NCBI GenBank assembly: GCA_029288895.1
Contig: JARIGK010000002.1
Span: forward strand, 94,986 to 158,985
From: Candidatus Adlerbacteria bacterium
Lineage (GTDB): Bacteria > Patescibacteriota > Minisyncoccia > Phycocordibacterales > SBAW01
Direction of reading: 5' to 3'
Length of the DNA: 64,000 bases
Below are positions 34,701 to 55,069 of the stretch, one piece after another. The notes beneath the pieces were generated by a model. It made no database searches, was not told the DNA's origin, and was given only the letters and a program-made list of their open reading frames with translations. Each line of letters starts with the position of its first letter. The first letter of the stretch is position 1. The position numbers and the translations under genes are program-made.

Positions 34701-34863
34701 ACATAAGAATCAAAATCCTGCCGCAGCAAGAACAACGCTTGTCGGGAGGAAATTCAACCTCTGCAATCTTCTCCTCTTCAGGGGTCAATTTCTCCTTGCG
34801 CTGTATCTTGTTGTAGATACGCTTTACTTCGTCAATGCGTGCAGATAATTCCTCGAATTTCAT
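34699..34863 (-). CDS. Unannotated small ORF (54 aa) with strong Shine-Dalgarno
   Basis: AAGGAGG 6 nt upstream of ATG at 34863; MKFEELSARIDEVKRIYNKIQRKEK...DKRCSCCGRILILM; stop lies in terminator stem; below the ORF-track size cutoff. Confidence 0.3.
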   Translation of the reverse strand: MKFEELSARIDEVKRIYNKIQRKEKLTPEEEKIAEVEFPPDKRCSCCGRILILM

Positions 34864-34958
34864 GTCGCGCCTCCTTGCGTGACAATTGCCTGCCGGAACT
34901 ATAGCACAAGAGATATAGCCGTGTATGATAACGAAAGAAATGTTCAGCGAGGTGCCCG

Positions 34959-35369
34959 ATGTCGATATTCTACGAATCGACCAGGCGGGCCCGCAAAGCC
35001 CGCTACTGCGATTATTGCCCCCACATGATCGAGCCTGGAAACATCTACGAGCGAAAGTTCATCCGGCACGATAAGGGTGAAGCATCGCTCCGCAACATGC
35101 TCTGGTGCGAGCATATCGACCCACCCTGCCCTGACCCTTATATGGAGATGGTCGAGCCGGGTCTTGCCGAGATAGAGATCAAGGTAGAGCTTGGTGTGCC
35201 GATCGAGATGGTTTTAGAGAATCGTCTCATGCAAAAAGTTCTTATCAACGGAGAAGTGGTAACCGAAAATGAAGTGGTTACTGTCTTCCGCGAAGGTCAG
35301 GCAGTGCCCATGTTCGCCGACATCTTCGTTGGCCCCGATACAGGCGGCGATGAAGACATTGCGTTTTAG
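34959..35369 (+). CDS. Hypothetical Cys-rich protein
   Basis: 136 aa with CDYCPH...C...CPDP cysteine cluster; followed by hairpin plus T-run near 35372..35400. Confidence 0.45.
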   Translation: MSIFYESTRRARKARYCDYCPHMIEPGNIYERKFIRHDKGEASLRNMLWCEHIDPPCPDPYMEMVEPGLAEIEIKVELGVPIEMVLENRLMQKVLINGEVVTENEVVTVFREGQAVPMFADIFVGPDTGGDEDIAF

Positions 35370-35451
35370 CCCCAGCTGCATGCCGGGGCTTTTTTTATTA
35401 AAAAACCAAACCTCGCAAAAATGCCTATTTTTGCTATTCTTCTATATGTAT

Positions 35452-35522
35452 TGCCCGATCGTCTAATGGTAGGACAGAGGCCTTTGAAGCCTTTAATCGT
35501 GGTTCGAATCCATGTCGGGCAG
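35452..35522 (+). tRNA. tRNA-Gln (anticodon TTG)
   Basis: Cloverleaf: acceptor TGCCCGA/TCGGGCA, anticodon loop CTTTGAA, T-arm CGTGG-TTCGAAT-CCATG, discriminator G; no encoded CCA. Confidence 0.8.
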
Positions 35523-35544
35523 CTCGTTAAGGTAGAATAAAGCT

Positions 35545-35949
35545 ATGGAAAAAACTTATATCGATAAGCTCGCTTTTATCGAGTTGAAAGATAGAAAAGT
35601 TTTGGAAACTAAAAGCCGCGGCAAAGATACATGGTATATACCCGGCGGGAAACGTGACGAAGGCGAAAGTGACGAACAAGCTTTAATACGAGAAGTCAAA
35701 GAGGAGTTAAATGTAGAAATTGATCCAACTACGATAGTTCATTATGGAACTTTCGAAGCGCAGGCTCATGGCAAACCAGAAGGCACGGTTGTTCGTATGA
35801 CTTGCTATCAGGCAAAATATTTTGGTGACCTGACCCCCAGTGCGGAAGTAGAAATGATGGATTGGTTCGACTACTCAAAAAAGAACTTAACATCTCCTGT
35901 AGATCAGATTATTTTTGACGATCTAAAAGATAGAAATCTGATTGATTAG
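35545..35949 (+). CDS. NUDIX hydrolase (cassette 1, tRNA-proximal; low GC about 40%)
   Basis: Nudix box GGKRDEGESDEQALIREVKEELNV. Confidence 0.85.
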   Translation: MEKTYIDKLAFIELKDRKVLETKSRGKDTWYIPGGKRDEGESDEQALIREVKEELNVEIDPTTIVHYGTFEAQAHGKPEGTVVRMTCYQAKYFGDLTPSAEVEMMDWFDYSKKNLTSPVDQIIFDDLKDRNLID

Positions 35950-35960
35950 GTTTGAAAAAA

Positions 35961-36045
35961 GTTCGAATATCGTCACCACACGAGTATTTCCATTTTTATA
36001 CTCACTTTGTTCGTTAAAAATGAGGTCGCCCAGACGGCCAGCTCG
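35961..36045 (+). repeat. Cassette-boundary repeat R1 (split copy: gttcgaatatcgtcacca ... cccagacggccagctcg with about 50-bp insert)
   Basis: Halves of the 30-bp consensus GTTCGAATATCGTCCCAGACGGGCAGCTCG; 3' flank CAGCTCGTTAGATAAAAG matches tRNA-Gln 3' flank CAGCTCGTTAAGGTAGAATAAAG. Confidence 0.65.
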
Positions 36046-36077
36046 TTAGATAAAAGAAAAACGACGCACATGCGTCG

Positions 36078-36416
36078 TTAATGGAGAGATGTTTTCCGGA
36101 TACTTTTCATCTTCTCCTCCAAGTCACAAAAGCCGAGTTTAATGAGTGCTGGCCTAGCTTCAATTGGGCCGCTCCAATACGCACCCATCTCATCGATGAT
36201 ATAGAGCGCCCCCTCAGATGTTAGGAGAGCAGGAAGATGTTTTTGTGCGACAAGACGTTTGATCTCCCTCCGAGACATTTTTGTAGACGGTTCCAATCCA
36301 AAAGAACTCATATTGGCTTCAATTTTTTCGAAGTCATTTTTGGAAAGAATTTCATCGCCGGGCATACATCCAAGAGCGCGGAGATTCTGTTCGTGCTTGC
36401 TCGGTTTCTTTGGCAT
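36078..36416 (-). CDS. Hypothetical protein (cassette 2)
   Basis: 112 aa; GAGGAGG RBS before ATG at 36416; palindromic terminator acgacgca-c-tgcgtcgt at 36057..36076. Confidence 0.5.
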   Translation of the reverse strand: MPKKPSKHEQNLRALGCMPGDEILSKNDFEKIEANMSSFGLEPSTKMSRREIKRLVAQKHLPALLTSEGALYIIDEMGAYWSGPIEARPALIKLGFCDLEEKMKSIRKTSLH

Positions 36417-36475
36417 GCAAATGCCTCCTCGATATATTTGAATCTAAGAGCAACGTACCATATCTTCCAGCAAGG

Positions 36476-36504
36476 TTCCAACTTCGTACCAGACGGGCAG
36501 CTCG
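36476..36504 (+). repeat. Cassette-boundary repeat R2 (hybrid type: TTCCAACTTCGTACC + AGACGGGCAGCTCG)
   Basis: 3' half identical to consensus; 5' half matches the variant seen in R6/R9. Confidence 0.65.
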
Positions 36505-36553
36505 TAAAAAAAGAAGAAGGCCGTCCATCCCATAAGGGAAGACGACCTTGAGT

Positions 36554-36862
36554 TCATGGCTTGTCGGGTGTCTCCTCGAAAGTGGCGACGCACTCCTTCA
36601 GGGAAAGGAAGAGTTCCTTTCGTTTGTTGAGGATAAAGGCATCGCCGACTTTGACGCGAAGTAACCAGATGTAGTTTGAGCCTTGAAAGACGGTCACACC
36701 GTTAAGGGTTACAGAATGATCACTAGGGTGACAGGCCATGACCCTCACGACCTCTTCAGGCGCGATGTAGAAATAACCACCGAGGCTGATTGAACGCTCG
36801 GCTCCAAAAGCTGGGGATGAAAGAACGAGTAGCGCACACACACCGGCGAATCGATTCAACAT
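36554..36862 (-). CDS. Hypothetical small secreted protein (cassette 3)
   Basis: Signal peptide MLNRFAGVCALLVLSSPAFGA; GGAGGA RBS. Confidence 0.5.
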   Translation of the reverse strand: MLNRFAGVCALLVLSSPAFGAERSISLGGYFYIAPEEVVRVMACHPSDHSVTLNGVTVFQGSNYIWLLRVKVGDAFILNKRKELFLSLKECVATFEETPDKP

Positions 36863-36977
36863 CACAATCCTCCAGATAAACAGGCCTTGATGAATTTACC
36901 ACACTTTTCTAAAATGTCAGCTCCATTTAATCGAGGAAGTTGGAGATTGCATGCACCATGCCCGCTCCCCTAAACTA

Positions 36978-37019
36978 GTTCGAATATCGTCACCACTATC
37001 GTCCCAGACGGGCAGCTAG
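36978..37019 (+). repeat. Cassette-boundary repeat R3 (gttcgaatatcgtcacca-ctatcgtc-ccagacgggcagctag)
   Basis: Consensus with 8-bp internal duplication; lies between divergent cassette genes. Confidence 0.65.
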
Positions 37020-37077
37020 TGACTTTTTGAATAATTTATTGTAGTTTCCATGGCGGGTCAGCACATGGAGGAACATA

Positions 37078-37617
37078 ATGACTGAGACAGCGGCTCGTGA
37101 GGGCAAGGGCGGTAGACTTCGTAGCGTCGAACGTCCAACGCGGCATCTGCCGAATTGCGCGCCGCCGGCACACACGAAGGTTTATGGCACGGGCGAGACC
37201 GAGCAGGAGCGACAGAGTGACATCTTCGAATTCGTCTGTGCAGAGGAATGGCACGACCACTTCGTCGGCTATTCATACGACCGCTCCAACCATCGGACTG
37301 GTCGCTACGACCGTCAGGGGTTGGTCCAGTCCGGCGCCATCATCTCGCTGGCATGCGGTCTCTCGAGCTGGATCTACCCAGATCATGTCCTGATCGACAT
37401 GGGCGAGATCAAGTTTCCGATTCCAATCTATGTCGGAGACAAGATTCGTCTGACATTCAGGAATCGTGCTCCGCAGGGCGTGCGGTACATCGACATCAAG
37501 CTCGAAGTCTTCCGCGAAGAGGAATGGCATGCGGTCTGCTCGACTCGCGCGGTTATTACCCGCTTCATCCCGCCGATTCGCAAGGACTATGTCGAGGCAC
37601 CGGATCAGTCGGCATAA
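37078..37617 (+). CDS. Hypothetical protein, possible hotdog-fold (cassette 4; high GC about 58%)
   Basis: GGAGGA RBS; 179 aa; composition markedly GC-richer than neighbours; followed by terminator 37631..37667. Confidence 0.5.
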   Translation: MTETAAREGKGGRLRSVERPTRHLPNCAPPAHTKVYGTGETEQERQSDIFEFVCAEEWHDHFVGYSYDRSNHRTGRYDRQGLVQSGAIISLACGLSSWIYPDHVLIDMGEIKFPIPIYVGDKIRLTFRNRAPQGVRYIDIKLEVFREEEWHAVCSTRAVITRFIPPIRKDYVEAPDQSA

Positions 37618-37630
37618 GTAGCAACATTGC

Positions 37631-37667
37631 AGACCGTTCCACTCAATCGGACGGTCTTTTCTTTTTA
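37631..37667 (+). terminator. Intrinsic terminator
   Basis: agaccgt tccactcaatcgg acggtct followed by TTTTCTTTTTAT. Confidence 0.7.
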
Positions 37668-37674
37668 TATATTT

Positions 37675-37704
37675 GTTCGAATATCGTCCCAGACGGCCAG
37701 CTCG
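37675..37704 (+). repeat. Cassette-boundary repeat R4 (GTTCGAATATCGTCCCAGACGGCCAGCTCG)
   Basis: Near-perfect consensus copy, 16 nt upstream of the next cassette ATG. Confidence 0.7.
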
Positions 37705-37720
37705 AGTATACTATTATCTA

Positions 37721-38225
37721 TATGCACCCAGAAGAATATCTAGACCTGGTGGATGAGAATGATCGGGTAATTGGGCGAGAACTTCGATCTACGATATACG
37801 CGAATGGTTGGAAGAATTTTCGGGTAGTTAATGTTTTTCTAAAAAATTCTAAAGGTCAACTTTGGATTCCTCGCCGCACTGCACACAAGGCAATATTTCC
37901 GTCAGCTCTAGACTTTAGCGCAGCAGGACATGTTTCAAGCGGAGAGTCATACGATGAAGCGTTTGCAAAAGAAGTCCAAGAAGAATTGAATATTGATGTT
38001 TCAAAGGTACGTCACCGACTATTGGGCTACCTCACCCCTAAGGATGGTGCCGTTCTTTTTATGCAGGTATACGAAATCGAAAGTGATGAGACGCCGCAGT
38101 ACAATCCAGATGACTTCAGCGAATCGTACTGGCTTACCCCTCAAGAAGTTGTTACTCGAATAGAGAATGGAGATTCTGCAAAAAATGATATTCCATTTTT
38201 GATCAAACGTTTCTATTTACAATAA
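37721..38225 (+). CDS. NUDIX hydrolase (cassette 5; low GC)
   Basis: Nudix box GHVSSGESYDEAFAKEVQEELNI; start ATG at 37721 (MHPEEYLDLV). Confidence 0.8.
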
Positions 38226-38250
38226 TTCGGATATCGTCCCAGACGGCTCG
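38226..38250 (+). repeat. Cassette-boundary repeat R5 (degenerate: TTCGGATATCGTCCCAGACGG-CTCG)
   Basis: Begins immediately after the NUDIX stop codon; 3-nt deletion relative to consensus. Confidence 0.6.
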
Positions 38251-38268
38251 TTTTGTTACAATTATTGA

Positions 38269-38610
38269 ATGCTGAAGATAAAGCGTGTATACGAACCGAT
38301 GGAGAAAAAAGATGGGTTGAGAATACTCGTTGATCGTCTCTGGCCTCGTGGGCTTACCAAAAACAAAGCTCATGTAGACTTCTGGATGAAAGATATTGCA
38401 CCCAGCCCAAAGTTACGAATATGGTTTGGGCATGAGCCAACAAAGTGGGTATTGTTCAAACGCCGCTATCTTGCAGAGCTGCATAAGAACAAAAAAGTGG
38501 TTGAGGAAATAAAGACCCATATGAAAGAGAATAAGAAAATTACTTTGCTATATGGAGCAAAAGATACAATGCACAACCATGCTCTCATACTTCAGGATTT
38601 TTTGTCCTAA
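38269..38610 (+). CDS. DUF488 (YeaO-like) family protein (cassette 6)
   Basis: RVYE...GLRILVDRLWPRG...W.KDIAPS..LR.WFGHEP..W..F...Y..EL......ITLLYGAKD pattern typical of DUF488. Confidence 0.75.
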   Translation: MLKIKRVYEPMEKKDGLRILVDRLWPRGLTKNKAHVDFWMKDIAPSPKLRIWFGHEPTKWVLFKRRYLAELHKNKKVVEEIKTHMKENKKITLLYGAKDTMHNHALILQDFLS

Positions 38611-38615
38611 TATAA

Positions 38616-38648
38616 TCCCAACTTCGTACCACACACCCAGCTAATGAC
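38616..38648 (+). repeat. Cassette-boundary repeat R6 (variant type: TCCCAACTTCGTACCACACACCCAGCTAATGAC)
   Basis: Shares TCCAAC.TCGTACCA with R2 and R9; diverged 3' half. Confidence 0.55.
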
Positions 38649-38700
38649 TTTTTAGTATAAATATTGTAAATTCTTTTTTGGAATAGAGGGAGGTGTTTGA

Positions 38701-39225
38701 ATGGACGAAGCTATGGAAAGTGCTCTTCGTTTTTATGAAGAGAATCGAGTGGGAAGTTTTGGGCGCCATGCTCATTTCCATTTTATGCAAGCGATGAAGT
38801 TAGGGTACGCCACTATGGCGCCCGAAGGCTCAATCGCTGAATTGCCAGGCTCGAAGACCATCGAGTATTCACATGAAAGATGGCGTGTTGTTGATACCTA
38901 CATCGTCACGCCGAACAGTCCGTATAGTGGCGGGACAACGATGCTGTACTATGATCCGCTGCCGGTGTTCATGATGCAATACCTCGGAAAGTATGAGGAG
39001 ATTGCAATCCCGTGCCTGAAAGCTGCACTCAAGGCCGGCTCAAGTGCCGGTGAATTCAATGGCGGACGCGGCCAAGATCTCTTTGTGCACGAAGGGTTCA
39101 CTTACACGAACGATGCATATGGAGATTTTTTCACCCACTCAAGCGCTTTCGAACAGATCTTCGATCCGAACAGACAACGCGTCGGTTGGCATCGTTGTCA
39201 GTCGATCTGGATGCTCCGGAAATAG
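38701..39225 (+). CDS. Hypothetical protein (cassette 7)
   Basis: GAGGGAGG RBS; 174 aa, no recognised domain; followed by terminator 39237..39268. Confidence 0.55.
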   Translation: MDEAMESALRFYEENRVGSFGRHAHFHFMQAMKLGYATMAPEGSIAELPGSKTIEYSHERWRVVDTYIVTPNSPYSGGTTMLYYDPLPVFMMQYLGKYEEIAIPCLKAALKAGSSAGEFNGGRGQDLFVHEGFTYTNDAYGDFFTHSSAFEQIFDPNRQRVGWHRCQSIWMLRK

Positions 39226-39236
39226 TAATTTCAACG

Positions 39237-39268
39237 ACGGCCGACTCAGTTGGCCGTTTTTCTTTTAT
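39237..39268 (+). terminator. Intrinsic terminator
   Basis: acggcc gactcagt tggccgt followed by TTTTTCTTTTAT. Confidence 0.7.
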
Positions 39269-39274
39269 AAATTC

Positions 39275-39304
39275 GTTCGAATATCGTCCTAGACGGGCGG
39301 CTCG
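39275..39304 (+). repeat. Cassette-boundary repeat R7 (GTTCGAATATCGTCCTAGACGGGCGGCTCG)
   Basis: Two substitutions relative to consensus; sits between convergent cassette genes, each with its own terminator. Confidence 0.7.
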
Positions 39305-39353
39305 TAAAATAAAAACATCGCGGATCATGCCGCGATGTGGAAGAACCGAGATT

Positions 39354-39620
39354 CTATTGATCAGGATCCCACGGTTTGAGTTGTGCACTATCGATGTCAC
39401 CAAACCCCTGAAAAAATACCCGTCTAAGCTCAGCAGCCTTGACGAGACATGTGTCGTGAATAACGATTTTCAATCTGTCGCCGTTCCCCGGGTCGAAGAC
39501 AGTTGATCCATAATTCCCTGTAGAGACAAACTCAACGCCGTCCTTTGGCAGATCAGTGCCTGGTCCGTTGAGATTTTCAATTTCTCTGCCGCATACGATG
39601 CAGGGAAGAGCGTTGACCAT
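39354..39620 (-). CDS. Hypothetical protein (cassette 8)
   Basis: 88 aa, AGGAGAG RBS; terminator hairpin catcgcgg-atcatgc-cgcgatg at 39316..39345 on minus strand. Confidence 0.5.
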   Translation of the reverse strand: MVNALPCIVCGREIENLNGPGTDLPKDGVEFVSTGNYGSTVFDPGNGDRLKIVIHDTCLVKAAELRRVFFQGFGDIDSAQLKPWDPDQ

Positions 39621-39682
39621 ATGTCTCTCCTGTGTTTAATCTGAGCAAAAGTTAGCACACATTTTTTCCTTTTTCCATATTC

Positions 39683-39712
39683 GTTCGAATATCGTCCCAG
39701 ACGGGCAGCTCG
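39683..39712 (+). repeat. Cassette-boundary repeat R8 (GTTCGAATATCGTCCCAGACGGGCAGCTCG, consensus copy)
   Basis: Exact consensus; between stop of cassette-9 gene and start region of cassette-8 gene. Confidence 0.7.
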
Positions 39713-39763
39713 CTAGATAATAGAAAACCGCTCACCTTTCAGTGAACGGTTCGTGCCGAACGG

Positions 39764-40072
39764 CTACTCTGCGTTCGAAAATTCCATTTTTCCTGTTCGA
39801 TCGTTGCTATTGTACTCGACCGAAATCCAATTGTATGGAGGTAATTTCTTTTTATCTTCGGCACTAATTTCTGACAATTGTCCGCCAAGTTTGTAATTTG
39901 ATCCATGGCACGTGACGAATTGAAAGTTGTAAATCTTTAGCCTAACAACTAAGGGCTGACCTTCAACGAAAAGTGTGAACTTAGCCACTGCTCCCAAATT
40001 ACGTGCGACGAACGCCTGCTCAAGATCGCGCTGACCTGGGCCATTGCCTATGTAGAGCCATGGAAGAGTCAT
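39764..40072 (-). CDS. Hypothetical protein (cassette 9)
   Basis: 102 aa, no recognised domain. Confidence 0.5.
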   Translation of the reverse strand: MTLPWLYIGNGPGQRDLEQAFVARNLGAVAKFTLFVEGQPLVVRLKIYNFQFVTCHGSNYKLGGQLSEISAEDKKKLPPYNWISVEYNSNDRTGKMEFSNAE

Positions 40073-40206
40073 AAAGATCTCCGGGGTTTGAAAAGAACAA
40101 TCACATCAAACATAAAGAAGGATGTGAGCCGTCAGACTATCTGGCAGCAGGAAAACAGTAAATTTTTATCACGTATACGTCAAGTTCCTGAGTTAACTCT
40201 CTAAAA

Positions 40207-40236
40207 TTCCAACGTCATACCACACACCTCTCAAAC
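40207..40236 (+). repeat. Cassette-boundary repeat R9 (most diverged variant: TTCCAACGTCATACCACACACCTCTCAAAC)
   Basis: Aligns with R6/R2 5' half; distal-most copy. Confidence 0.5.
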
Positions 40237-40264
40237 TTATCCAAACAAGGCGTATTATTACCGA

Positions 40265-40501
40265 ATGTACTTCGTATATATGCTCGAGTGTAGCGACGGG
40301 TCGCTGTATACCGGCATTACGACTGATGTAAAAAGACGCTTCCAAGAACATAAGGCTGGCAAAGGCGGGCACTTCACCAGCTCGAGAGACGTTGTAAAAA
40401 TTGTATACACCGAAGAACATCCGGACAGGTCGTCTGCATCCAAACGCGAAGCCGAAATAAAACGCCTGCGCCGAGCAGACAAATTAAAGTTGATTTCATA
40501 G
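40265..40501 (+). CDS. GIY-YIG domain protein (UPF0213/YhbQ-like, 78 aa)
   Basis: MYFVYMLECSDGSLYTGITTDVKRRFQEHKAGKGGHFT GIY-YIG signature. Confidence 0.75.
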   Translation: MYFVYMLECSDGSLYTGITTDVKRRFQEHKAGKGGHFTSSRDVVKIVYTEEHPDRSSASKREAEIKRLRRADKLKLIS

Positions 40502-40556
40502 AAATTTCAGTGCCCACCTTCAGCAACTTTTAACCGCGTATGCAGTTATATGAAGT

Positions 40557-40814
40557 ATGTCCAAAGGGAAACGGATTTTGGGAAGTATTGCTATTGCTGT
40601 CGTTGCAGTGGGTGCTTTTTTGGGGTACCAGGTGTACCGAACGAACGCGGCCCATTCATCATTTGAAAACTACTACGCATTCCGTGGATGCCAAGAATTG
40701 ATCGAAAAAACTGACTCCTTCGCTACCTGCCGGCTTGCCGACGGCTCGATTATTAAACTCGTACTCATAAACAACAAGTGGTACCTCGACGGCGACGGCC
40801 CCGGTATTTGGTAG
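40557..40814 (+). CDS. Small membrane-anchored hypothetical protein
   Basis: 85 aa with N-terminal TM helix; possible degenerate boundary repeat just upstream (40507..40535). Confidence 0.4.
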   Translation: MSKGKRILGSIAIAVVAVGAFLGYQVYRTNAAHSSFENYYAFRGCQELIEKTDSFATCRLADGSIIKLVLINNKWYLDGDGPGIW

Positions 40815-40833
40815 AAATTGGTATAATTGATAG

Positions 40834-41130
40834 ATGAAACTTACTGGCGGCACCGTACACACCCTTCCTCCAGATTTGAAAGCGGCGCTCGCCAAAGATG
40901 CGAAGGCAGCACGTTTGTGGGAAGAGATTACCCCGCTCGCCCGCAATGAATGGATCTGCTGGACCATTTCAGTAAAGCAAGACAAAACGCGCAACGACCA
41001 TGTTAAGCGCGTCGTATCGGAGTTAAAAGACGGCATGCGCCGCCCCTGCTGCTGGATAGGCTGCATCCATCGCACCGACAAAAAAGTGAGCCGCTCTGTA
41101 CAGTTCGTCCTCGCAAAACGCTCTAAATAA
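40834..41130 (+). CDS. YdeI/OmpD-associated (OmdA) family protein
   Basis: DLKAALAKDAKAARLWEEITPLARNEWICWTISVKQDKTRNDHVKRVVSELKDGMRRPC matches the YdeI/OmdA family pattern. Confidence 0.6.
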   Translation: MKLTGGTVHTLPPDLKAALAKDAKAARLWEEITPLARNEWICWTISVKQDKTRNDHVKRVVSELKDGMRRPCCWIGCIHRTDKKVSRSVQFVLAKRSK

Positions 41131-41148
41131 TAGTGCTACAATTCCCGC

Positions 41149-41520
41149 ATGAAGGAACGGCACAAAAAGCGGATCGTTCATTGGTTTACGTCCGAAGAAA
41201 AATTTATTAAAACTCCTGTCGGCATTTTTTTGCTTGGATGTTTTTTGGGCGAGCTTTCTCCCGACCCTACAGACGCCGTTCATTTTTGGCTGCAACAGCA
41301 TGTACTTAACAATCCTACATTCCCTGCATTTTGGCGTGCATTTTTGCAGGTCTTCGACTGGTACTTTATGAGCGCATGTTACTTTCTCCTGTTGCTCATA
41401 CTCGCCTACTTCTTGCACATAACCAACGTCGGCGCTGTCAAACGCTTTACTATCGTTGCAGGTGTTTTAAGCATCGGCGCCGCTGTCGGCATCTTGGCGC
41501 AGTTTGTCATAGGCAGTTAG
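41149..41520 (+). CDS. Hypothetical membrane protein
   Basis: 123 aa, 3 hydrophobic helices; weak RBS. Confidence 0.35.
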   Translation: MKERHKKRIVHWFTSEEKFIKTPVGIFLLGCFLGELSPDPTDAVHFWLQQHVLNNPTFPAFWRAFLQVFDWYFMSACYFLLLLILAYFLHITNVGAVKRFTIVAGVLSIGAAVGILAQFVIGS

Positions 41521-41524
41521 TACG

Positions 41525-41974
41525 ATGAACTACTGGCTTCTCAAAACAGAACCAAGCGCGTATTCGATAGACGATTTAAAGCGCGACAAAACAACTGCCT
41601 GGGAGGGCGTGCGCAACTACCAGGCGCGCAACTTTATGCAACAGATGAAGAAGGGAGATTTATGCCTCTTCTACCACTCGAGCACGGAACCTGTTGGTGT
41701 ATTTGGCGTCGCAAAGGTAACAAAAGAAGCCTATCCTGATGCATCACAGTTTAATAAAAAAGATTCGCACTTCGACCCGAAGGCCACGAAAGAAAAACCT
41801 ATCTGGTTTTGCCCCGACATTACCTTTGTCAAAAAATTTAAAGAGCCGTTCCTTTTGACGCATATCAAAGCCGACCATGCCCTGCGCGGCATTATGGTCG
41901 CCCAGCAAGGCTCGCGCCTTTCCGTCCAGCCCGTATCCGAAATGCATTTCACATATATCACCAAAAACGCGTAG
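41525..41974 (+). CDS. EVE (PUA-like) domain protein
   Basis: MNYWLLKTEPSAYSIDDLKRDKTTAWEGVRNYQARNFMQQMKKGDLCLFYHS is the typical EVE-domain N-terminus. Confidence 0.8.
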   Translation: MNYWLLKTEPSAYSIDDLKRDKTTAWEGVRNYQARNFMQQMKKGDLCLFYHSSTEPVGVFGVAKVTKEAYPDASQFNKKDSHFDPKATKEKPIWFCPDITFVKKFKEPFLLTHIKADHALRGIMVAQQGSRLSVQPVSEMHFTYITKNA

Positions 41975-42019
41975 CATTCTACACGCGAAATTCACGAGTG
42001 CTCTGCGACTATTGAGCAC

Positions 42020-42490
42020 ATGAACGAATTTGTAAGTACAAAGGTTGGCGAGGTACTGGCGTTTGCACGCCTCTGTACCGATACGCTTGAAATGGGGCGC
42101 AGCGCGCTCGCAGAGATGGTTGGCGAAGAACGCCTCGACAGCGCAGAAGACGAACTTGAGACCCTCGAGCGCTCGATAGCTGCCTTGGCACAGGACGAAC
42201 ATGCCGTTGTGGCAATCGAGACATCCGCGACACAGACGCAAGAAAAATTGCGCACCATGCGCGACACCTATATCGACGGCAATTGGGACGAAGCCAGCGA
42301 AGTGCTTGAATGGCTCGGCTTTTCGACTGGCGCCGCATTGGTGCATTGGCACTTGCTCGCCGGCGCTGCACGCGCCACGGACGACAGCGGGCTTGCCGAT
42401 GTGGCAAAAGACGCGATCCGTTTCTACACATCGCTCTTTAGCTCGGACGAAGCAGTTCTTGCCGAGATCGGTGCATCAGCGGCCGCCTAA
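42020..42490 (+). CDS. Hypothetical acidic protein
   Basis: 156 aa, Ala/Glu-rich, relatively GC-rich; no recognised family. Confidence 0.4.
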   Translation: MNEFVSTKVGEVLAFARLCTDTLEMGRSALAEMVGEERLDSAEDELETLERSIAALAQDEHAVVAIETSATQTQEKLRTMRDTYIDGNWDEASEVLEWLGFSTGAALVHWHLLAGAARATDDSGLADVAKDAIRFYTSLFSSDEAVLAEIGASAAA

Positions 42491-42533
42491 GAAAAACCCG
42501 CGAGCAATGCCCGCGGGTGTAGTAGGTACAGAA

Positions 42534-43124
42534 CTATTCTTCCTCACTTTCATCCTCGCCCTGGCCGCCCTCTGGTTTGCCGCTCTTGGGCCTGCGAGAC
42601 GAAGGCGAAATGACAGAGACGCGAAGTTTTTTTACCTGCATGGCACTTGCTGTTGCAGTACGCACATCGGCATTTTCCTTACCCTCTGCCAACAAGCGTA
42701 TGGGCTGGAGCGCACGTTCGGTGACTTTTTGCCATACCGGTTTCGACAGTGCCTGCTCGAGATAGCCCGGGTTCACGGTCAGCTCAAAACTCGTTGCAAT
42801 GAGCGTTTTTCCTAGCTTCCCTTCTATCTCCTCGACGCCAGTGTGCGCCCAGTGCGGAAGCAATTGCCCCACAAGCGTCTCGCGGCGTTCCAGCAGCGGA
42901 TTCAACTGTTGCTGGATTTTTTCAAGCTCGTCGACAAGTTCGACAACCTTCTCTGGCTTAAGTTGCGGGCCTTTTGCTCTCTCTGCCCTGCGGCGTTTCG
43001 AGATCGCCTGATTTTTAACACTCTCTGCAAGTGCCTCAAACCAGCTATATGCCTGTCGTAGTTTTTTTGTAACTCCAACATGCGTTGGGCCCGATGCTTT
43101 TCGTGCCTGCGCAGTGACTACCAT
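42534..43124 (-). CDS. Hypothetical protein with acidic C-terminal tail
   Basis: Start trimmed to ATG at 43124 preceded by GAGGAGAAGAGGG RBS; 196 aa, basic N-terminus, coiled-coil-like centre, EDESEEE tail. Confidence 0.5.
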   Translation of the reverse strand: MVVTAQARKASGPTHVGVTKKLRQAYSWFEALAESVKNQAISKRRRAERAKGPQLKPEKVVELVDELEKIQQQLNPLLERRETLVGQLLPHWAHTGVEEIEGKLGKTLIATSFELTVNPGYLEQALSKPVWQKVTERALQPIRLLAEGKENADVRTATASAMQVKKLRVSVISPSSRRPKSGKPEGGQGEDESEEE

Positions 43125-43243
43125 CCCTCTTCTCCTCGATCTGCTATGAATTAACTCGTCAATGAAGAACTCTCCGACCAGCAACTCTACACAACCCACA
43201 TAAACCTCACATGAAGTACAGAACGAGTTGCTATACTTGGTAT

Positions 43244-43753
43244 ATGCAAAAAATCACAGCTCATCTTTGGTACGACAAAGAAGCAGAAGAGGCCATCAAT
43301 TACTACGTCGACGTGTTTAACGGCGCCCCCAACAAAGAGGCCGAGTCACAAGTGCTCAGCATCACCCGCTACCCTGAAGGTGGCACAGGCCCCATGGCCG
43401 GTATGGACGGCAAAGTGCTTACTGGCGTCTTCGAGTTGGCCGGCCAGCGCTTTATGGCGCTCGATGGCGGCCCCATCTTCAAGTTCAACGAGTCGATCTC
43501 AATGCTCGTCAATTGTAAAACCCAAGAAGAAATAGACTATTTCTGGGGCAAACTCTCTGCCGTGCCCGAAAGCGAACAGTGCGGCTGGTGCAAAGACAAA
43601 TTCGGCCTTTCGTGGCAAATCAACCCCACCGAAATTATGGGCAAGATGATGGACGGTTCTAACCCAGCAAAAACAAAAGCTGTCATTGCAGCCTTTATGC
43701 CGATGAAGAAGCTGGATATCGCAGCACTCCAAGCCGCCTACGACGCGGCGTAG
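43244..43753 (+). CDS. VOC-family protein of the 3-demethylubiquinone-9 3-methyltransferase-like (PhnB-like) domain family
   Basis: MQKITAHLWYD...AEEAINYYVDVF...VLTGVFELAGQRFMALDGGP.FKFNESISMLVNCKTQEEIDYFWGKLS...CGWCKDKFGLSWQI. Confidence 0.75.
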   Translation: MQKITAHLWYDKEAEEAINYYVDVFNGAPNKEAESQVLSITRYPEGGTGPMAGMDGKVLTGVFELAGQRFMALDGGPIFKFNESISMLVNCKTQEEIDYFWGKLSAVPESEQCGWCKDKFGLSWQINPTEIMGKMMDGSNPAKTKAVIAAFMPMKKLDIAALQAAYDAA

Positions 43754-43754
43754 C

Positions 43755-44306
43755 CTACATTAGCTTCGTTTCCTCATCTTCTTCGTCCATATCGTTGGCG
43801 CGCTCGTTTACGCCCGACGTTGCGAGCTCGTTCAACTTTTCATCCGTTGCCTCTTCCTCCTCGAGCGTCTCCTCAAGCAGGTCGGCGACTTCGGTGTGGC
43901 CCATTTCGCGCGCCCACTCCACAGCGCTGCCATAGCCAGCGATTTCGTAATGCTCTACATACTGCGCCGCGGCGATCAAGTTTGCGTCAAGCGCTTCGCT
44001 TCCCTCGACGTTCTTGATCACCCATTCGCCATCAGCTATAAGGCCGCGTATCGCTTCGCTTTTTAATTTCTTCGGCTTTTCATTAAGCAATTCAAATGCT
44101 TTTTCGAGGCGCTCGATCTGCCCTTTTGTTTGCTCCAAATGTTCTTCAAACCCTGATTTCAATTCTGCATCGCTCGCAGCCTTTGCCATCTTAGGCAAGG
44201 CTTTGGTAATTTCATGCTCAACGTCGTAGAGCGACTGCATCTTGGTAATAAGCAAATCATGGAGCGTCATAGACTCCTGTGATTTTGATTTCTTTGTTGT
44301 AGCCAT
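43755..44306 (-). CDS. Ferritin-like DUF892 (YciE/YciF) family protein
   Basis: LHDLLITKMQSLYDVEHEITKALPKMAKAA...FEEHLEQTKGQIERLEKAFELL pattern of DUF892; acidic C-terminus. Confidence 0.75.
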   Translation of the reverse strand: MATTKKSKSQESMTLHDLLITKMQSLYDVEHEITKALPKMAKAASDAELKSGFEEHLEQTKGQIERLEKAFELLNEKPKKLKSEAIRGLIADGEWVIKNVEGSEALDANLIAAAQYVEHYEIAGYGSAVEWAREMGHTEVADLLEETLEEEEATDEKLNELATSGVNERANDMDEEDEETKLM

Positions 44307-44369: not shown

Positions 44370-45431
44370 TCAGGCTGCACCAAGTGCACGGTAGAGCGCA
44401 AGCTCAAGCGGTATAGCAGGGACCGGCGCTTTGCCCATCTCGAGCAGTGCAGTAATAAGTTCTGAAAGTAGATGCGCATTAATAGCTGCGCCCGAGGCAC
44501 CCGCCAAGTTGGAGAGAAATGCGATATCGTCCTCGCTCAACTGCTCGGCTAACTGAGCCTTTAATTCTGGCGCAAAGCGCAGCAGTAGCACACCGCGCAC
44601 TTTTGCGATGGCTAGCATCGCAAATACTTTAGGCTGGGCGCCAGCCTTCAACCCCGCATGAAATTGTGCGAGTGCCTGTGCAATATTTTTTGCCGCAAGC
44701 GCGTCCAAAAACGCATTCACGCTCTTTGATGAAGGCGCGCCTACAACCTGCGCCACCTCTTCTTCTGTCAGTGTTGCATCTTCTGAAATCGTGAGAACTT
44801 TCTGCAAAATACCAAGCGTGTCGCGGAAGGAACCATCACCCATCATGGCAATAAGTTCGGCGCCTGCAGGAGCAAGCGATGCACCCTCTTTCTTTGCAAC
44901 ATCAAGCACGAGCTTCTTTAATGTCTCGTGCGACGGGTTCTTAAATTGGAATGTCTGGCAGCGCGATTTGATTGTGTCTGGAACTTTATCAAGCTCTGTT
45001 GTGGCAAGCACAAACACCACGTGCTCGGGCGGCTCTTCCAAGGTCTTGAGTAACGCACCCCAGGCTTGCGGCGTTAGCGCATGCGCTTCGTCGACGATAT
45101 AAAACTTGTACGCCGACTGAAATGGCAGCGTTGCAACACCCTCGCGCAGCTCGCGTATCTCGTCGATACCGCGGTTGCTTGCCGCATCCATCTCGTAGAT
45201 GTCAGCATCAGCGGTACCCAAGGCGCGCGCCAAAGCGCGCGCCATCGATGTTTTGCCTGTGCCGCGCCCGCCCGAAAAGAGGTAGGCATGCGCGATCTTC
45301 TTTTGTGCGACAGCTGCACGTAAGACAGCGGTAATATGCTCTTGGTCGCGGAATTCATCAAACTCCCCTGGCCTATACTTTCTGTATAGCGCTACGGGCG
45401 CACGCGTATCGGCTGGAGTGCTCTTTGCCAT
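44370..45431 (-). CDS. dnaX: DNA polymerase III subunit gamma/tau, short form (355 aa)
   Basis: YRKYRPGEFDEFRDQEHI, GGRGTGKTS Walker A, VDEAHAL, SRCQTFQFK sensor motifs; no tau C-terminal extension. Confidence 0.85.
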   Translation of the reverse strand: MAKSTPADTRAPVALYRKYRPGEFDEFRDQEHITAVLRAAVAQKKIAHAYLFSGGRGTGKTSMARALARALGTADADIYEMDAASNRGIDEIRELREGVATLPFQSAYKFYIVDEAHALTPQAWGALLKTLEEPPEHVVFVLATTELDKVPDTIKSRCQTFQFKNPSHETLKKLVLDVAKKEGASLAPAGAELIAMMGDGSFRDTLGILQKVLTISEDATLTEEEVAQVVGAPSSKSVNAFLDALAAKNIAQALAQFHAGLKAGAQPKVFAMLAIAKVRGVLLLRFAPELKAQLAEQLSEDDIAFLSNLAGASGAAINAHLLSELITALLEMGKAPVPAIPLELALYRALGAA

Positions 45432-45449
45432 CCACACCAGTATACTGGC

Positions 45450-45842
45450 TTATTTCTTTTTTGAAACTTTTTTGGCCTTTTTCTTAGCCTTTGTGACAGC
45501 CCGCGTGCCAGTGGTGCGTGCAGCCTCCATATGGCCCCAGGTATTCTTCAAATCGCGGGTTACCGATGCAATTTCAGCCGCCGTGACGCCCGACATCTTC
45601 GAGTAACGAGACATGACTTCTTGGACGAGTGCCAAATACTTTTTCTTATCAATGTCTTCCATCTTCTCAATTGCCTCCATCACTTCAGCACGAGCTTTCA
45701 GCATCCAGCTCTTTGCTTGGCGACGATGCTTTTCTGCATCCTTAGCACCATAAAACCAATACGCACCTGCTGCGGCAACTGCAGCTGCTGCAGCCAACCC
45801 TGCACCCACTGCAATAGTAGAACTGGTATCTTTTTTCGCCAT
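45450..45842 (-). CDS. Hypothetical protein with Ala-rich TM and Lys-rich C-terminus
   Basis: 130 aa; N-terminal hydrophobic Ala-rich helix, KKKAKKVSKKK tail. Confidence 0.45.
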   Translation of the reverse strand: MAKKDTSSTIAVGAGLAAAAAVAAAGAYWFYGAKDAEKHRRQAKSWMLKARAEVMEAIEKMEDIDKKKYLALVQEVMSRYSKMSGVTAAEIASVTRDLKNTWGHMEAARTTGTRAVTKAKKKAKKVSKKK

Positions 45843-45866
45843 AATGTTTAAAGTATCGCTTACTAA

Positions 45867-46199
45867 TTATGAATTGTCGCTGAAGGGTTCGTTCTCCACC
45901 TCTCCAACTTTCTTCTGTTTGCGCGGCATTGTACGTTTCTTCATACGCGAGGCAATAAAGCCGAGCCCCAAGTCGACTATCGCGCGCATTTTGACACCCT
46001 CGTTCTTTACCTCGCGGCGCAGTGTTTCAAAATCTTCTTCCAATTCGCGGCTCGCACGATTGAGCTTTGCGGTAATCTCTTTAAGATCGCGTAAAATCTG
46101 CACCACGTAATACGAGGCAATAAGGCCAGCCCCAGCAAACAGCACAACAACAATAGAAGTAATAAAGAAAAAGATATCTGCGTGTACAACTTCGCTCAT
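45867..46199 (-). CDS. Hypothetical membrane-anchored coiled-coil protein
   Basis: 110 aa; N-terminal TM then charged helical segment. Confidence 0.45.
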   Translation of the reverse strand: MSEVVHADIFFFITSIVVVLFAGAGLIASYYVVQILRDLKEITAKLNRASRELEEDFETLRREVKNEGVKMRAIVDLGLGFIASRMKKRTMPRKQKKVGEVENEPFSDNS

Positions 46200-46205
46200 A
46201 TCACC

Positions 46206-49270: not shown

Positions 49271-49300
49271 ATAGCCAGTTTTATACTTACAAATAGTACA

Positions 49301-54463: not shown

Positions 54464-55069
54464 TTAGCCCAAATGCGCGTGATCGTTCCAGGTGAGCAGT
54501 TTCCACGCACCATCATATTCGAGTACCGTTATACCTGTGTTTGAAGTCATTATATTGTTCATTGCGCGCTCTTCCTGCTCCCACGTTGCTGAATCACCAA
54601 ACAAAACAGCAAGCACCATATGGCGCAAGAAGCGTCCGTGAGTTACAACAACGATAGAATCTTCGGGCTGCTCTGCAATATATGCGAGTGCCTGTTTTGC
54701 ACGCGCATGTAGCATCGCCGGGGTTTCTTCATCTTCGTACTGCCAATCGCGATTGCGCTTAACTAGATAGTCTTGAACAATTTCTTCTTTGTACTGAATT
54801 CCAATAAAAGAGGTTGGATATTTAGCTTCTGCAAATAAAGGAGAGAAGCGCGGTTCGTGCCCTGTGCGTTCTGCAATCTTTTCTGCAGTTTGCTTTGCAC
54901 GAAGCATATCGCTCGAAAGCAAAAGATCGAATTGAACACGCGTAAGGCGGTCTGCAATCATTCCTGCTTGCTCTATGCCCTTTTCAGCCAACGCATCAGC
55001 GCCGTCTTGCACGCGGCTTTCTATATTAAATTTGGTCAGCCCGTGCCGGACAAAATAAACTTTTTTCAT
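54464..55069 (-). CDS. Histidine phosphatase family protein (phosphoglycerate mutase-like)
   Basis: Catalytic RHG (YFVRHGLT), second His in VVVTHGRF. Confidence 0.8.
   Translation of the reverse strand: MKKVYFVRHGLTKFNIESRVQDGADALAEKGIEQAGMIADRLTRVQFDLLLSSDMLRAKQTAEKIAERTGHEPRFSPLFAEAKYPTSFIGIQYKEEIVQDYLVKRNRDWQYEDEETPAMLHARAKQALAYIAEQPEDSIVVVTHGRFLRHMVLAVLFGDSATWEQEERAMNNIMTSNTGITVLEYDGAWKLLTWNDHAHLG

Follow-up and report, generated by a model that had tools for sequence, protein, structure and literature searches.

The sharp differences in GC content between neighbouring small genes in this stretch of a Patescibacteria (CPR) chromosome are real, and most likely arise because the genes form an integron-like row of separately acquired one-gene cassettes, located downstream of a tRNA-Gln gene and bounded by a 27-base site that is conserved across many Patescibacteria genomes. 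We found no published description of such a system. The window analysed here comprises 64,000 nucleotides of Candidatus Adlerbacteria bacterium (assembly GCA_029288895.1, contig JARIGK010000002.1, positions 94,986 to 158,985 of the forward strand). Within it, the tRNA-Gln(UUG) gene is followed by nine single-gene units (C1 to C9), separated by co-oriented copies of GTTCGAATATCGTCCCAGACGG(G/C)CAGC, a sequence that looks like the 3′ end of tRNA-Gln with a 5-nt insertion (Table 1).

Table 1. Features of the tRNA-Gln-anchored array (positions in the window)
Feature	Position	Strand	GC (%)	GC3 (%)	Description and basis
tRNA-Gln (anticodon UUG)	35452..35523	+			Proximal anchor; 3′ end ...GGTTCGAATCCATGTCGGGCAG(C) takes the place of a repeat as left junction of C1; ARAGORN, Rfam tRNA 62.8 bits, trailer comparison
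C1 gene	35545..35949	+	39.5	35.6	NUDIX hydrolase, 134 aa; Pfam PF00293, E=1e-12
Repeat 1	35961..36042	+			Split: left part GTTCGAATATCGTCACCAC (35961-35979), right part GTCGCCCAGACGGCCAGC (36025-36042), about 45 nt apart; partial nhmmer hits at 35960-35974 and 36029-36043; repeat family D10
C2 gene	36078..36416	-	45.1	45.1	112 aa, no family match; own terminator at 36079-36060 (-)
Repeat 2	36475..36501	+			Variant B, GTTCCAACTTCGTACCAGACGGGCAGC; nhmmer E=1.2e-5
C3 gene	36554..36865	-	51.6	57.7	103 aa, no family match; N-terminus resembles a signal peptide
Repeat 3	36978..37016	+			Composite, GTTCGAATATCGTCACCAC followed by TATCGTCCCAGACGGGCAGC; nhmmer hits at 36977-36991 and 36997-37018
C4 gene	37078..37617	+	58.0	68.3	179 aa, rare (only 3 protein clusters among 5.8 billion); promoter-like GTGACT-N17-TAGTTT just after repeat 3; stem-loop followed by T-run before repeat 4; weak hot-dog-fold hint (PDB 1IXL, E=0.034)
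Repeat 4	37675..37701	+			Full consensus, GTTCGAATATCGTCCCAGACGGCCAGC; nhmmer E=1.2e-10, exact pattern match
C5 gene	37722..38225	+	41.7	33.9	NUDIX (Pfam), 167 aa, named isopentenyl-diphosphate-isomerase by some sources
Repeat 5	38226..38247	+			Truncated, TTCGGATATCGTCCCAGACGGC, lacking the CAGC end; abuts the stop codon of C5
C6 gene	38269..38610	+	40.4	44.7	DUF488, 113 aa; Pfam PF22752/PF04343
Repeat 6	38616..38641	+			Degenerate variant, TCCCAACTTCGTACCACACACCCAGC; repeat family D5, weak nhmmer hit
C7 gene	38701..39225	+	50.3	54.9	174 aa, weak DUF5680 match; promoter-like ATGACT-N17-TAAATT after repeat 6; terminator at 39236-39258
Repeat 7	39275..39301	+			GTTCGAATATCGTCCTAGACGGGCGGC; pattern match and nhmmer
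C8 gene	39354..39620	-	48.7	48.3	88 aa, no family match; terminator at 39338-39315 (-)
Repeat 8	39683..39709	+			GTTCGAATATCGTCCCAGACGGGCAGC; 3′ part CGGGCAGCTCG identical to the host tRNA-Gln end plus trailer
C9 gene	39764..40072	-	43.7	44.7	102 aa, no family match; terminator at 39752-39725 (-)
Repeat 9	40206..40231	+			Strongly degenerate, ATTCCAACGTCATACCACACACCTC; last recognisable junction; repeat family D5, 85% to the copy at 38611; very weak nhmmer hit
GIY-YIG domain gene	40265..40501	+	47.3		78 aa (Pfam); probably a further cassette, as a homologue lies downstream of a repeat in the array of another locus (tblastn)

Compositional heterogeneity of the cassette genes

The earlier note had reported that adjacent units differ sharply in GC content, and all its figures hold. 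As a background, 49 recognisable core genes of the window have a GC content of 51.2 ± 2.5% (range 45.9-56.0) and a GC3 of 55.6 ± 4.7% (range 42.6-64.6). In 450-bp windows taken outside the array, the mean GC is 51.1% (sd 3.1, minimum 40.0, maximum 59.3), and only 0.13% of them are at or below 41%, while 2.0% are at or above 57.5%. Therefore, the cassettes of around 40% GC are extreme, whereas C4 is only a mild outlier on total GC, although its GC3 does exceed that of every core gene. Resampling with same-length, in-frame pieces of core genes (20,000 draws) gave an expected sd of GC of 3.2 against 6.1 observed (P=0.002), an expected sd of GC3 of 6.5 against 10.8 observed (P=0.007), and an expected mean difference between adjacent units of 3.7 points against 6.6 observed (P=0.02). 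The heterogeneity is thus about twice the background, but the evidence is moderate rather than overwhelming, because there are only nine short genes, and composition alone would not have proved independent acquisition.

Notably, each cargo family examined keeps its own GC3 regardless of that of its host. The C4 family shows a GC3 of 68-77% in contigs of 51-53% GC, and the C5 family one of 34-38% in loci of 43-56% GC, in one of which the neighbouring genes have a GC3 of 65-76%. In other arrays, cassettes deviate from the GC of their locus by -2.1 ± 4.6 points. The family-typical GC that C1, C4 and C5 each display in several hosts could also be expected from a native accessory gene cluster, in which compositional differences reflect gene-family constraints rather than mobility. 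GC3 deviations of 20 points cannot come from protein-level constraints, although a gene-family-specific compositional constraint cannot be fully excluded.

The note had further inferred that the cassettes are mobile and were independently acquired from different donors, in preference to a native operon. Independent acquisition is supported by evidence that does not depend on composition (see below). On the other hand, no donor was identified, and donors from different phyla, one of the checks suggested in the note, are not shown. C1 has more than 3400 homologues, the top ones 75-93% identical and those that carry names mostly CPR, and the named nearest homologues of C1 and C5 are nearly all Patescibacteria. 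Moreover, synonymous sites between C1 and its closest sampled relatives are largely saturated (third-position identity 41-57%), and no recent transfer can be documented.

A conserved tRNA-Gln-like site bounds the cassettes

In a profile search of the window, all six significant copies of the repeat and three partial pieces lie in 35960-39710 on the + strand, and the other ~59 kb holds only weak matches (E≥0.27). The exact 21-nt core occurs in 25 genome loci, all of them Patescibacteria MAGs except one contig labelled planctomycete, as well as in 40 metagenome loci, and it has no exact hit in 2.9 million viral contigs. Across 122 distinct copies, 27 positions are nearly invariant, and copies are co-oriented within every one of the 66 sequences examined (the 65 loci plus the window). 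A tRNA-Gln gene (CUG or UUG) lies upstream in the same orientation in 27 of 66, and in 15 of the 24 that have more than 2 kb of upstream room, although some arrays lack a tRNA-Gln within reach. The units delimited in this way have a median length of 639 nt, one ORF fills 81% of a unit, and 41 of 53 ORFs are co-oriented with the repeats. The remaining 23%, and 4 of 9 in this window, face the other way.

Interestingly, the tRNA end and the repeat are interchangeable left partners of a cassette. The same 75-nt leader follows the tRNA in one locus (L018) and a repeat in another (L049), with 86.7% identity starting right after CAG, and 8 of 23 tRNA trailers match a post-repeat flank in another locus above the maximum seen in shuffled controls. 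Cassette boundaries also coincide with the repeats. In a comparison of homologous cassettes in three genomes (loci L001, L024 and L018+L021), sequence is shared only between the repeats: the left repeats are 93-96% identical and the right repeats 57-100% (the L024 copy is decayed), while the cargo shows 51-64% and the outside 20-36% identity. Cargo differs between arrays, and the nearest relatives of C1, C4 and C5 sit in unrelated contexts and never together. Indeed, the C1 family is found in a tRNA-Gln array in one locus, after dnaK in three, inside an atp operon in one and next to murL in three others. Cassettes carry terminators of their own, and promoter-like modules lie right after the site.

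These data also bear on the possibility that the 27-nt element is a shared operator or UP-like element, or an RNA processing signal, placed in front of small, independently transcribed native genes. In favor of this view, in many copies the core lies 3 nt upstream of a TTGACT -35 box. However, the element is confined to one array per locus, it keeps its orientation when genes face the other way, similarity between genomes starts and stops at the repeats, the neighbours differ in every genome, and the tRNA end replaces the element at the first junction. Furthermore, the element has no Rfam match and no fold. We consider this explanation very unlikely.

A proposed model for cassette acquisition

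The explanation that we favor, with reasonable though not full confidence, is that the region is an integron-like array of independently acquired single-gene cassettes anchored at tRNA-Gln. According to this model, a cassette would consist of a short leader (often with its own sigma-70-type promoter), one gene, usually a terminator, and then the conserved 27-bp site GTTCGAATATCGTCCCAGACGG(C/T/G)CAGC, which mimics the 3′ end of tRNA-Gln with the 5-nt insertion after the T-loop. Cassettes would enter by site-specific recombination between their own site and either the 3′ end of the chromosomal tRNA-Gln or a resident site, with the junction at or just after the shared ...CAGC, so that the tRNA stays intact and older cassettes are pushed distally. 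The recombinase would be encoded elsewhere in the genome and act in trans; its existence and type, like the exact crossover position and a circular intermediate, are inferred. The mixed composition would follow from the circulation of cassettes among Patescibacteria whose sampled loci have 33-58% GC, without staying long enough in one host to take on its composition. Nothing like XerD, Cre or a resolvase appears in the window or in the other loci screened (L001-L067), and no candidate emerged from ORF clustering with Pfam either. Likewise, no circular cassette, empty site or presence/absence polymorphism was observed, the duplicate loci included, and the site, which has no dyad symmetry, does not resemble the core site of any recombinase family we could name.

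The absence of a linked recombinase leaves room for a mechanism without a dedicated enzyme, in which the conserved sites serve as portable homology and DNA taken up by natural transformation is inserted, replaced or deleted by RecA-dependent recombination between repeats. Natural transformation has been shown to drive cassette shuffling in chromosomal integrons (PMC12614218), and the window appears, from reading of the translation, to encode DprA at 49205-50164. In addition, repeats within a genome tend to share the variable position (GGG in the window, GGT in three other loci), a pattern that fits gene conversion. Nevertheless, this mechanism does not explain why an asymmetric 27-nt sequence is held at 93-100% identity while the cargo drifts to 51-64%, nor why the tRNA-Gln end, which shares only GTTCGA...CAGC with the site, is the proximal partner. 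A 27-bp stretch is probably at the lower limit for efficient RecA recombination, and a first insertion next to the tRNA would have homology on only one side. This alternative therefore remains possible but doubtful.

It could also be postulated that larger integrative elements, tycheposon-like or prophage-like and carrying their own tRNA-Gln-specific integrase, integrated repeatedly at the tRNA and later lost their integrase and replication modules, leaving cargo fragments separated by partial-tRNA att scars. A full-length tRNA at the proximal end with direct tRNA-3′-like repeats distally is the architecture described for tycheposon-seeded islands (10.1101/2020.12.28.424599), and the distal part of the window (40.2-44.3 kb) holds cassette-type genes without recognisable repeats, as expected from decay. 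However, no integrase, integrase fragment or replication gene was found in the window or in any of the array loci screened (L001-L067), the units are uniformly small with one intact ORF and its own promoter and terminator, and the core has no exact hit in 2.9 million viral contigs. Moreover, the repeats are not copies of the host tRNA end, but one sequence conserved across hosts whose tRNA-Gln genes differ. Decayed tandem islands thus seem an unlikely origin.

Relationship to known systems

As in sedentary chromosomal integrons and CALINs (attC clusters lacking an integrase), the array consists of short, mostly single-ORF cassettes (here with a median of about 640 nt and 77% of ORFs co-oriented), each ending in a recombination-type site, with a proximal primary site that differs from the cassette site, cargo mostly of unknown function and heterogeneous composition. 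As in CALINs, no integrase lies next to the array. In contrast, the site described here is conserved in sequence and has no imperfect palindrome or folded structure, while in attC sites structure is conserved and sequence is variable. No IntI is present, the primary site is the 3′ end of a tRNA gene rather than an attI next to intI, cassettes carry their own promoters and terminators instead of relying on a common Pc promoter, and a quarter of the genes are inverted. Since no recombinase gene is linked to any of the arrays screened and the sites lack an attC-like fold, this is not a classical integron.

Small gene modules bounded by short conserved recombination sites and moved by a recombinase encoded elsewhere in the host would also be a feature of pdif modules and other Xer-dependent elements. 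pdif sites, however, are probably 28-bp XerC/XerD sites with dyad symmetry that flank modules in alternating (inverted) orientation, while the sites in this array are asymmetric, all direct, tRNA-like and anchored at a tRNA gene.

Finally, the tycheposon-seeded, tRNA-anchored genomic islands of Prochlorococcus (10.1101/2020.12.28.424599), and tandem tRNA-integrated islands in general, share with this array a full-length tRNA at the proximal end and partial-tRNA-like direct repeats marking successive insertions, and both occur in streamlined genomes. In the tycheposon model heterogeneity is greatest next to the tRNA; here the most deviant gene, C1, is the one nearest the tRNA, but there is no trend along the array. 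Tycheposons are multi-kb elements that carry their own tyrosine or serine recombinase and replication genes, and their att repeats are copies of the host tRNA segment. Here, on the other hand, the units are about 0.3-1 kb with one gene and no recombinase, and the repeat is a pseudo-tRNA end with a 5-nt insertion, shared across hosts whose tRNA-Gln sequences differ.

Composition of the cassette genes

The earlier note had claimed that neighboring cassettes differ sharply in composition, with the two NUDIX genes and the DUF488 gene at about 40% GC and the fourth cassette gene at about 58%, and direct measurement confirms these figures. In contrast to the values of these four genes (C1, C5, C6 and C4, named after their position in the array; see the table of features), 49 recognizable core genes of the same window average 51.2 ± 2.5% GC (range 45.9-56.0) and 55.6 ± 4.7% GC3, and it is the GC3 values that make the point more strongly. 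Notably, among 450-bp windows outside the array only 0.13% are at or below 41% GC, while 2% are at or above 57.5%, so that the AT-rich cassettes represent the real outliers and C4 is a mild one. When same-length, in-frame pieces of core genes were resampled, the nine cassette genes proved to be about twice as dispersed as expected, with a sd of GC of 6.1 against 3.2 (P=0.002), a sd of GC3 of 10.8 against 6.5 (P=0.007) and a mean adjacent difference of 6.6 against 3.7 points (P=0.02). The pattern is therefore real, although with nine short genes the statistical support is only moderately strong.

The 27-nt site and its occurrence in Patescibacteria

A tRNA-Gln(UUG) gene is followed by nine single-gene units, five on the + strand and four on the - strand, separated by co-oriented copies of about 27 nt, GTTCGAATATCGTCCCAGACGG(G/C)CAGC. 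Four copies are complete, one is truncated, one is split by about 45 nt and one is composite, whereas one is a clear variant (GTTCCAACTTCGTACCAGACGGGCAGC) and two are degenerate forms of that variant. The composite copy consists of GTTCGAATATCGTCACCAC followed by TATCGTCCCAGACGGGCAGC, and the shared ...CGTCACCAC variant suggests recombination between different site variants. The repeat looks like the 3' end of tRNA-Gln with five extra bases after the T-loop, as illustrated by comparing the tRNA, GGTTCGAATCCATGTCGGGCAGC, with the repeat, GTTCGAAT[ATCGT]CCCAGACGGGCAGC. A profile built from 122 distinct copies finds every significant match of the 64-kb window within 3.8 kb on one strand. Several cassettes have their own intrinsic terminator inside the unit, and both C4 and C7 (the seventh cassette gene) begin, right after the repeat, with a promoter-like (G/A)TGACT-N17-TA(G/A)(T/A)TT. 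The cargo comprises NUDIX (twice), DUF488, a weak DUF5680 match and five proteins with no family in Pfam or NCBIfam. Exact look-ups of window proteins found nothing on record, a comparison with PDB provided only a weak hot-dog-fold hint for C4, and PADLOC returned only generic NUDIX similarity to a candidate defence family.

Coordinates of the features discussed (window, or locus where named)
Sequence	Position	Strand	Feature	GC / GC3 (%)	Remark
Window	18054-19004	-	Metallo-beta-lactamase-fold gene	47 /	Local 450-bp windows at or below 43% GC
Window	18069-18082		Weak repeat-like match, TCCCAGACGGCGAG		E=0.27
Window	35452-35523		tRNA-Gln(UUG)		
Window	35545-35949		C1, NUDIX	39.5 / 35.6	
Window	35960-39710	+	All significant matches to the repeat profile		
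Window	35961-36042		Repeat split by an insertion of about 45 nt		
Window	36978-37016		Composite repeat		
Window	37078-37617		C4	58.0 / 68.3	
Window	37722-38225		C5, NUDIX	41.7 / 33.9	
Window	38269-38610		C6, DUF488	40.4 / 44.7	
Window	40265-44306		Possible older, decayed distal part of the array		No recognizable repeats
Window	40265-40501		GIY-YIG gene		
Window	40834-41130		OmdA gene		
Window	41525-41974		EVE-domain gene		
Window	43211-43753		3-dmu-9_3-mt/glyoxalase-like gene		
Window	44370-47177		Segment compared with L068 1393-4439		
Window	55066-56613	-	Longest ORF containing the ParB-like gene		
Window	56221-56302	+	tRNA-Leu(CAA)		
L018	800-875		Conserved 75-nt leader		
L049	just downstream of the repeat at 7772-7792	-	Conserved 75-nt leader		
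L068	1393-4439		Segment compared with window 44370-47177		
L068	about 5040-5075 and 5975-6010		Third repeat variant		
L071	8640-10214	-	Large serine recombinase, 524 aa		Resolvase plus Zn_ribbon_recom
L078	6924-7910		C5-like NUDIX gene and SET-domain gene	/ 38-42	After a tRNA-Phe

The 21-nt core of the site, TTCGRATATCGTCCYAGACGG, occurs exactly in 25 loci of a one-genome-per-species collection, all of them Patescibacteria MAGs (Paceibacterota, Parcubacteria, some labelled Saccharibacteria) except one contig labelled planctomycete. It also occurs in 40 metagenome loci and, as an exact match, in no viral contig; a looser pattern gave 45 viral hits, but all of these lie in a conserved coding stretch of unrelated, mostly high-GC phage contigs and do not have the CAGC end, so they are irrelevant. 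With relaxed matching there are 142 copies, and within each of the 66 sequences examined all copies are on one strand. tRNA-Gln (CUG or UUG) lies upstream in the same orientation in 27 of 66, and in 15 of the 24 with more than 2 kb of upstream sequence. Arrays reach 8 copies in 5 kb and 10 in 10 kb (in the array loci L042 and L047, respectively). Units between repeats have a median of 639 nt (IQR 506-1075), one ORF fills 81% of a unit, and 41 of 53 ORFs point the same way as the repeats. Interestingly, in L068, a Parcubacteria MAG, the first cassettes of the array are bounded by a third repeat variant, GTTCTAACC(C/T)CG(C/T)TCA(A/G)T(G/T)CCCGCAGCAC, whose 3' end (CCCGCAGC) matches the 3' end (acceptor strand plus discriminator and one trailer base) of the tRNA-Gln(CUG) genes found in other loci, and the site family is therefore broader than the pattern used for the searches. 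The order in this MAG is Dus, DnaX, peptidase M10, tRNA-Gln(UUG) and then the array, all on one strand, while in the window DnaX and Dus lie downstream of the array on the opposite strand, suggesting that the segment carrying the tRNA and array is inverted in one lineage.

Three results support the view that the repeats are recombination-type boundaries and that the tRNA end is their partner. First, the sequence that follows the tRNA belongs to the same classes as the sequences that follow repeats, as 8 of 23 tRNA trailers match a post-repeat flank from another locus at 20 or more of 28 positions, when the maximum in shuffled controls was 19. Second, in the array locus L018 a 75-nt leader starts right after the tRNA's ...CAG, and the same leader, at 86.7% identity, starts right after a repeat's ...CAG in the locus L049, in front of a different gene. 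This conserved leader (ATTGA(C/T)AGCTAGACCGAGACGTGTCGAA...GACTGATATACTTTC) is a portable promoter or 5'-UTR module of unknown function that precedes different genes in different genomes. Third, a homologous cassette (repeat, TTGACT promoter-like element, RBS, a gene of roughly 130-150 aa, terminator, repeat) is present in three different MAGs (L001, L024 and L018+L021), in which the left repeats are 93-96% identical (the right repeats 57-100%, the L024 copy being decayed), the interior 51-64%, and the sequence outside 20-36%, which is the level of unrelated sequence. The site is thus under much stronger constraint than the cargo, and similarity begins and ends at it. In addition, a subfamily has an extended left arm of about 50 nt with unrelated genes on both sides. 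The notion of a native cluster with a shared operator is contradicted by these homology boundaries, as well as by the clustering of the element, its constant orientation and the GC3 deviations. On the other hand, RecA-mediated exchange of transformed DNA using the repeats as portable homology cannot be excluded, since it fits the within-genome uniformity of one variable repeat position, although it does not explain the strong conservation of the site or the role of the tRNA end.

Cassette-like genes may also extend beyond the recognizable repeats. The GIY-YIG, OmdA and 3-dmu-9_3-mt/glyoxalase-like genes located distally in the window have homologues in or next to arrays of other genomes, some directly beside a repeat, and an EVE-domain gene lies among them. 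Although no repeats are recognizable in this stretch, it may be an older, decayed distal part of the array. Likewise, a metallo-beta-lactamase-fold gene with low GC has homologues in the array loci L001 and L051, and a weak repeat-like match is located there; this could be a stray cassette far from the array, or chance. By contrast, the longest ORF containing the ParB-like gene, which runs across tRNA-Leu(CAA) on the other strand, is an artefact of mechanical ORF calling and not a biological feature, and the true ParB start must lie further downstream.

Cargo families and the search for a recombinase

C1 belongs to a very large NUDIX family, with more than 3400 proteins at E≤1e-10, the top hits being 75-93% identical and nearly all named ones coming from CPR. 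Its relatives sit in different places: one is in the tRNA-Gln(UUG) array of L068 with a repeat directly after the gene, while others lie after dnaK (loci L073, L074 and L076), between atpI and atpB (L075, the closest relative with context, 92% identical) and next to murL with degenerate repeat remnants (L070-072). In this family gene GC tracks host GC and is usually a little lower (gene/host 33.1/32.8, 36.0/38.4, 37.0/40.5, 41.0/44.9 and 43.6/47.6), the gap being largest in this window (39.5/50.5). The relatives of C5 keep GC3 at 37-38% both in a 43% GC locus (L077) and in a 56% GC locus (L078). In the latter the gene lies directly after a tRNA-Phe, together with a SET-domain gene, among genes with GC3 of 65-76%, forming an AT-rich islet at a different tRNA and without the 27-nt repeat. 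The C4 family is rare, with three protein clusters among 5.8 billion, and its members have GC3 of 68-77% in contigs of 51-53% GC, the two relatives seen having no repeats nearby. In other arrays, cassettes deviate from locus GC by -2.1 ± 4.6 points. The P-II-like family, considered as a further example of mobility, sits in multi-gene units and was uninformative.

Each family therefore carries its own composition from host to host, which is what turnover faster than amelioration would produce, and this explains the mosaic as a signature of cassette turnover and not noise from short genes. The interpretation put forward in the earlier note, namely that the units are mobile cassettes independently acquired from different donors rather than a native operon, is supported with respect to independent acquisition. 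However, the named nearest relatives of C1 and C5 are nearly all Patescibacteria, so donors from different phyla are not shown, and third-codon-position identity between C1 and its closest sampled relatives is only 41-57%, so no recent transfer can be documented and a recent transfer of C1 from a sampled donor was rejected.

No recombinase was found linked to the arrays within the sequences screened. All ORFs of 160 aa or more in the first half of the window and of 140 aa or more in the second half were read, Pfam was run on the flanking genes, and ORFs from the array loci (L001-L025, then L001-L065) were clustered and annotated with Pfam, from which only core synteny and cargo emerged. A motif search gave no hit, and a phmmer search of every stop-to-stop frame of at least 100 codons in the window and loci L001-L067, with XerD, Cre and gamma-delta resolvase queries, gave a best E-value of 0.09. 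In other genomes, the genes upstream of tRNA-Gln are FtsE/FtsX, CTP synthase, MetK, DUF1761 and surface proteins. Among them, a protein of ~325 aa directly upstream of tRNA-Gln in four loci has a signal peptide predicted by inspection and is Ala-rich, so it looks like a surface protein and not an enzyme. A 524-aa large serine recombinase is called next to tRNA-Ala in L071, a Nomurabacteria-type contig, 2.2 kb from the C1-like NUDIX, but it is not called at the same coordinates in L070 or L072, and no link to the 27-nt site was established. In addition, no circular cassette contig was detected by terminal overlaps. Decayed tandem integrations of integrase-bearing, tycheposon-like elements are disfavored by the complete absence of integrase remnants in the window and the array loci screened, by the uniformly small intact units, and by repeats that are not copies of the host tRNA.

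The best-supported reading is an integron-like platform in which the tRNA-Gln 3' end would play the part of attI and the 27-bp pseudo-tRNA end that of attC. Cassettes would move through an inferred circular intermediate, the junction is inferred to fall at or just after the shared CAGC, so that the tRNA is preserved, and an inferred, unknown recombinase would act in trans. It is about as likely as not that Patescibacteria (CPR) have a gene-capture platform that evolved independently of integrons and that stockpiles single-gene cassettes downstream of tRNA-Gln, with the site recognized by an unlinked recombinase, possibly of a new type or a repurposed housekeeping enzyme. If so, this would be a major route of gene exchange in these ultra-small, reduced genomes, in which the mechanisms of gene exchange are poorly defined; indeed, a general survey of horizontal transfer in the group does not mention tRNAs, integrases or cassettes (PMC12455944). 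A conserved, easily searchable 27-nt site would give a direct handle on the flexible gene pool of these organisms in metagenomes, a testable recombination substrate (27-bp site and tRNA-Gln end) with which to look for the enzyme, and a second, independent example of an integron-like way of organizing accessory genes.

Comparison with known systems

The system appears to be undescribed, as literature searches, including one for the sequence string itself, found no description of it, although the literature covered was incomplete and prior description cannot be ruled out. A GC mosaic alone is expected for any cassette array; what differs here is the anchoring at tRNA-Gln, the wide distribution in Patescibacteria and the absence of linkage to any integrase in the loci screened. 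Rfam 15 finds nothing except the tRNA itself in 34800-41500 at E≤1, and the repeat is neither CRISPR nor a dispersed intergenic (REP/MITE-like) repeat, copies of which would be scattered over the genome in both orientations.

The region works like a chromosomal integron or a CALIN in that it forms an array of short, mostly co-oriented single-ORF cassettes, each with one site, with the departure that cassettes have their own promoter-like elements and terminators. Nevertheless, it lacks two defining attributes of the classical integron. On one hand, no intI tyrosine recombinase gene was found adjacent to the array among the ORFs and frames screened. On the other hand, attC sites are imperfect inverted repeats (R''-L''/L'-R') that fold as single strands, with structure conserved and sequence variable, whereas here there are no reverse-strand copies, the sequence is nearly invariant over 27 nt, the mean pairing probability of the core equals that of the flanks, the folding z-score is 0.16 ± 0.95, and only a 4-bp CGTC/GACG mini-stem is present. 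Xer-dependent modules (pdif / IMEX) would be expected to carry a 28-bp site with two inverted 11-bp arms around a 6-bp spacer and to be flanked by oppositely oriented sites, but the core described here is asymmetric, without dyad symmetry, and all copies in each of the 66 sequences are direct. Finally, the region resembles tRNA-seeded islands such as those built by tycheposons (10.1101/2020.12.28.424599). An intact tRNA-Gln is present and the repeats resemble its 3' end (GTTCGA...GTCC.AG...CAGC). However, these repeats carry a 5-nt insertion, are not copies of the host tRNA and are more conserved across hosts than the tRNA itself, no element-borne integrase was found in the window or in any array locus screened, and the units are single genes.
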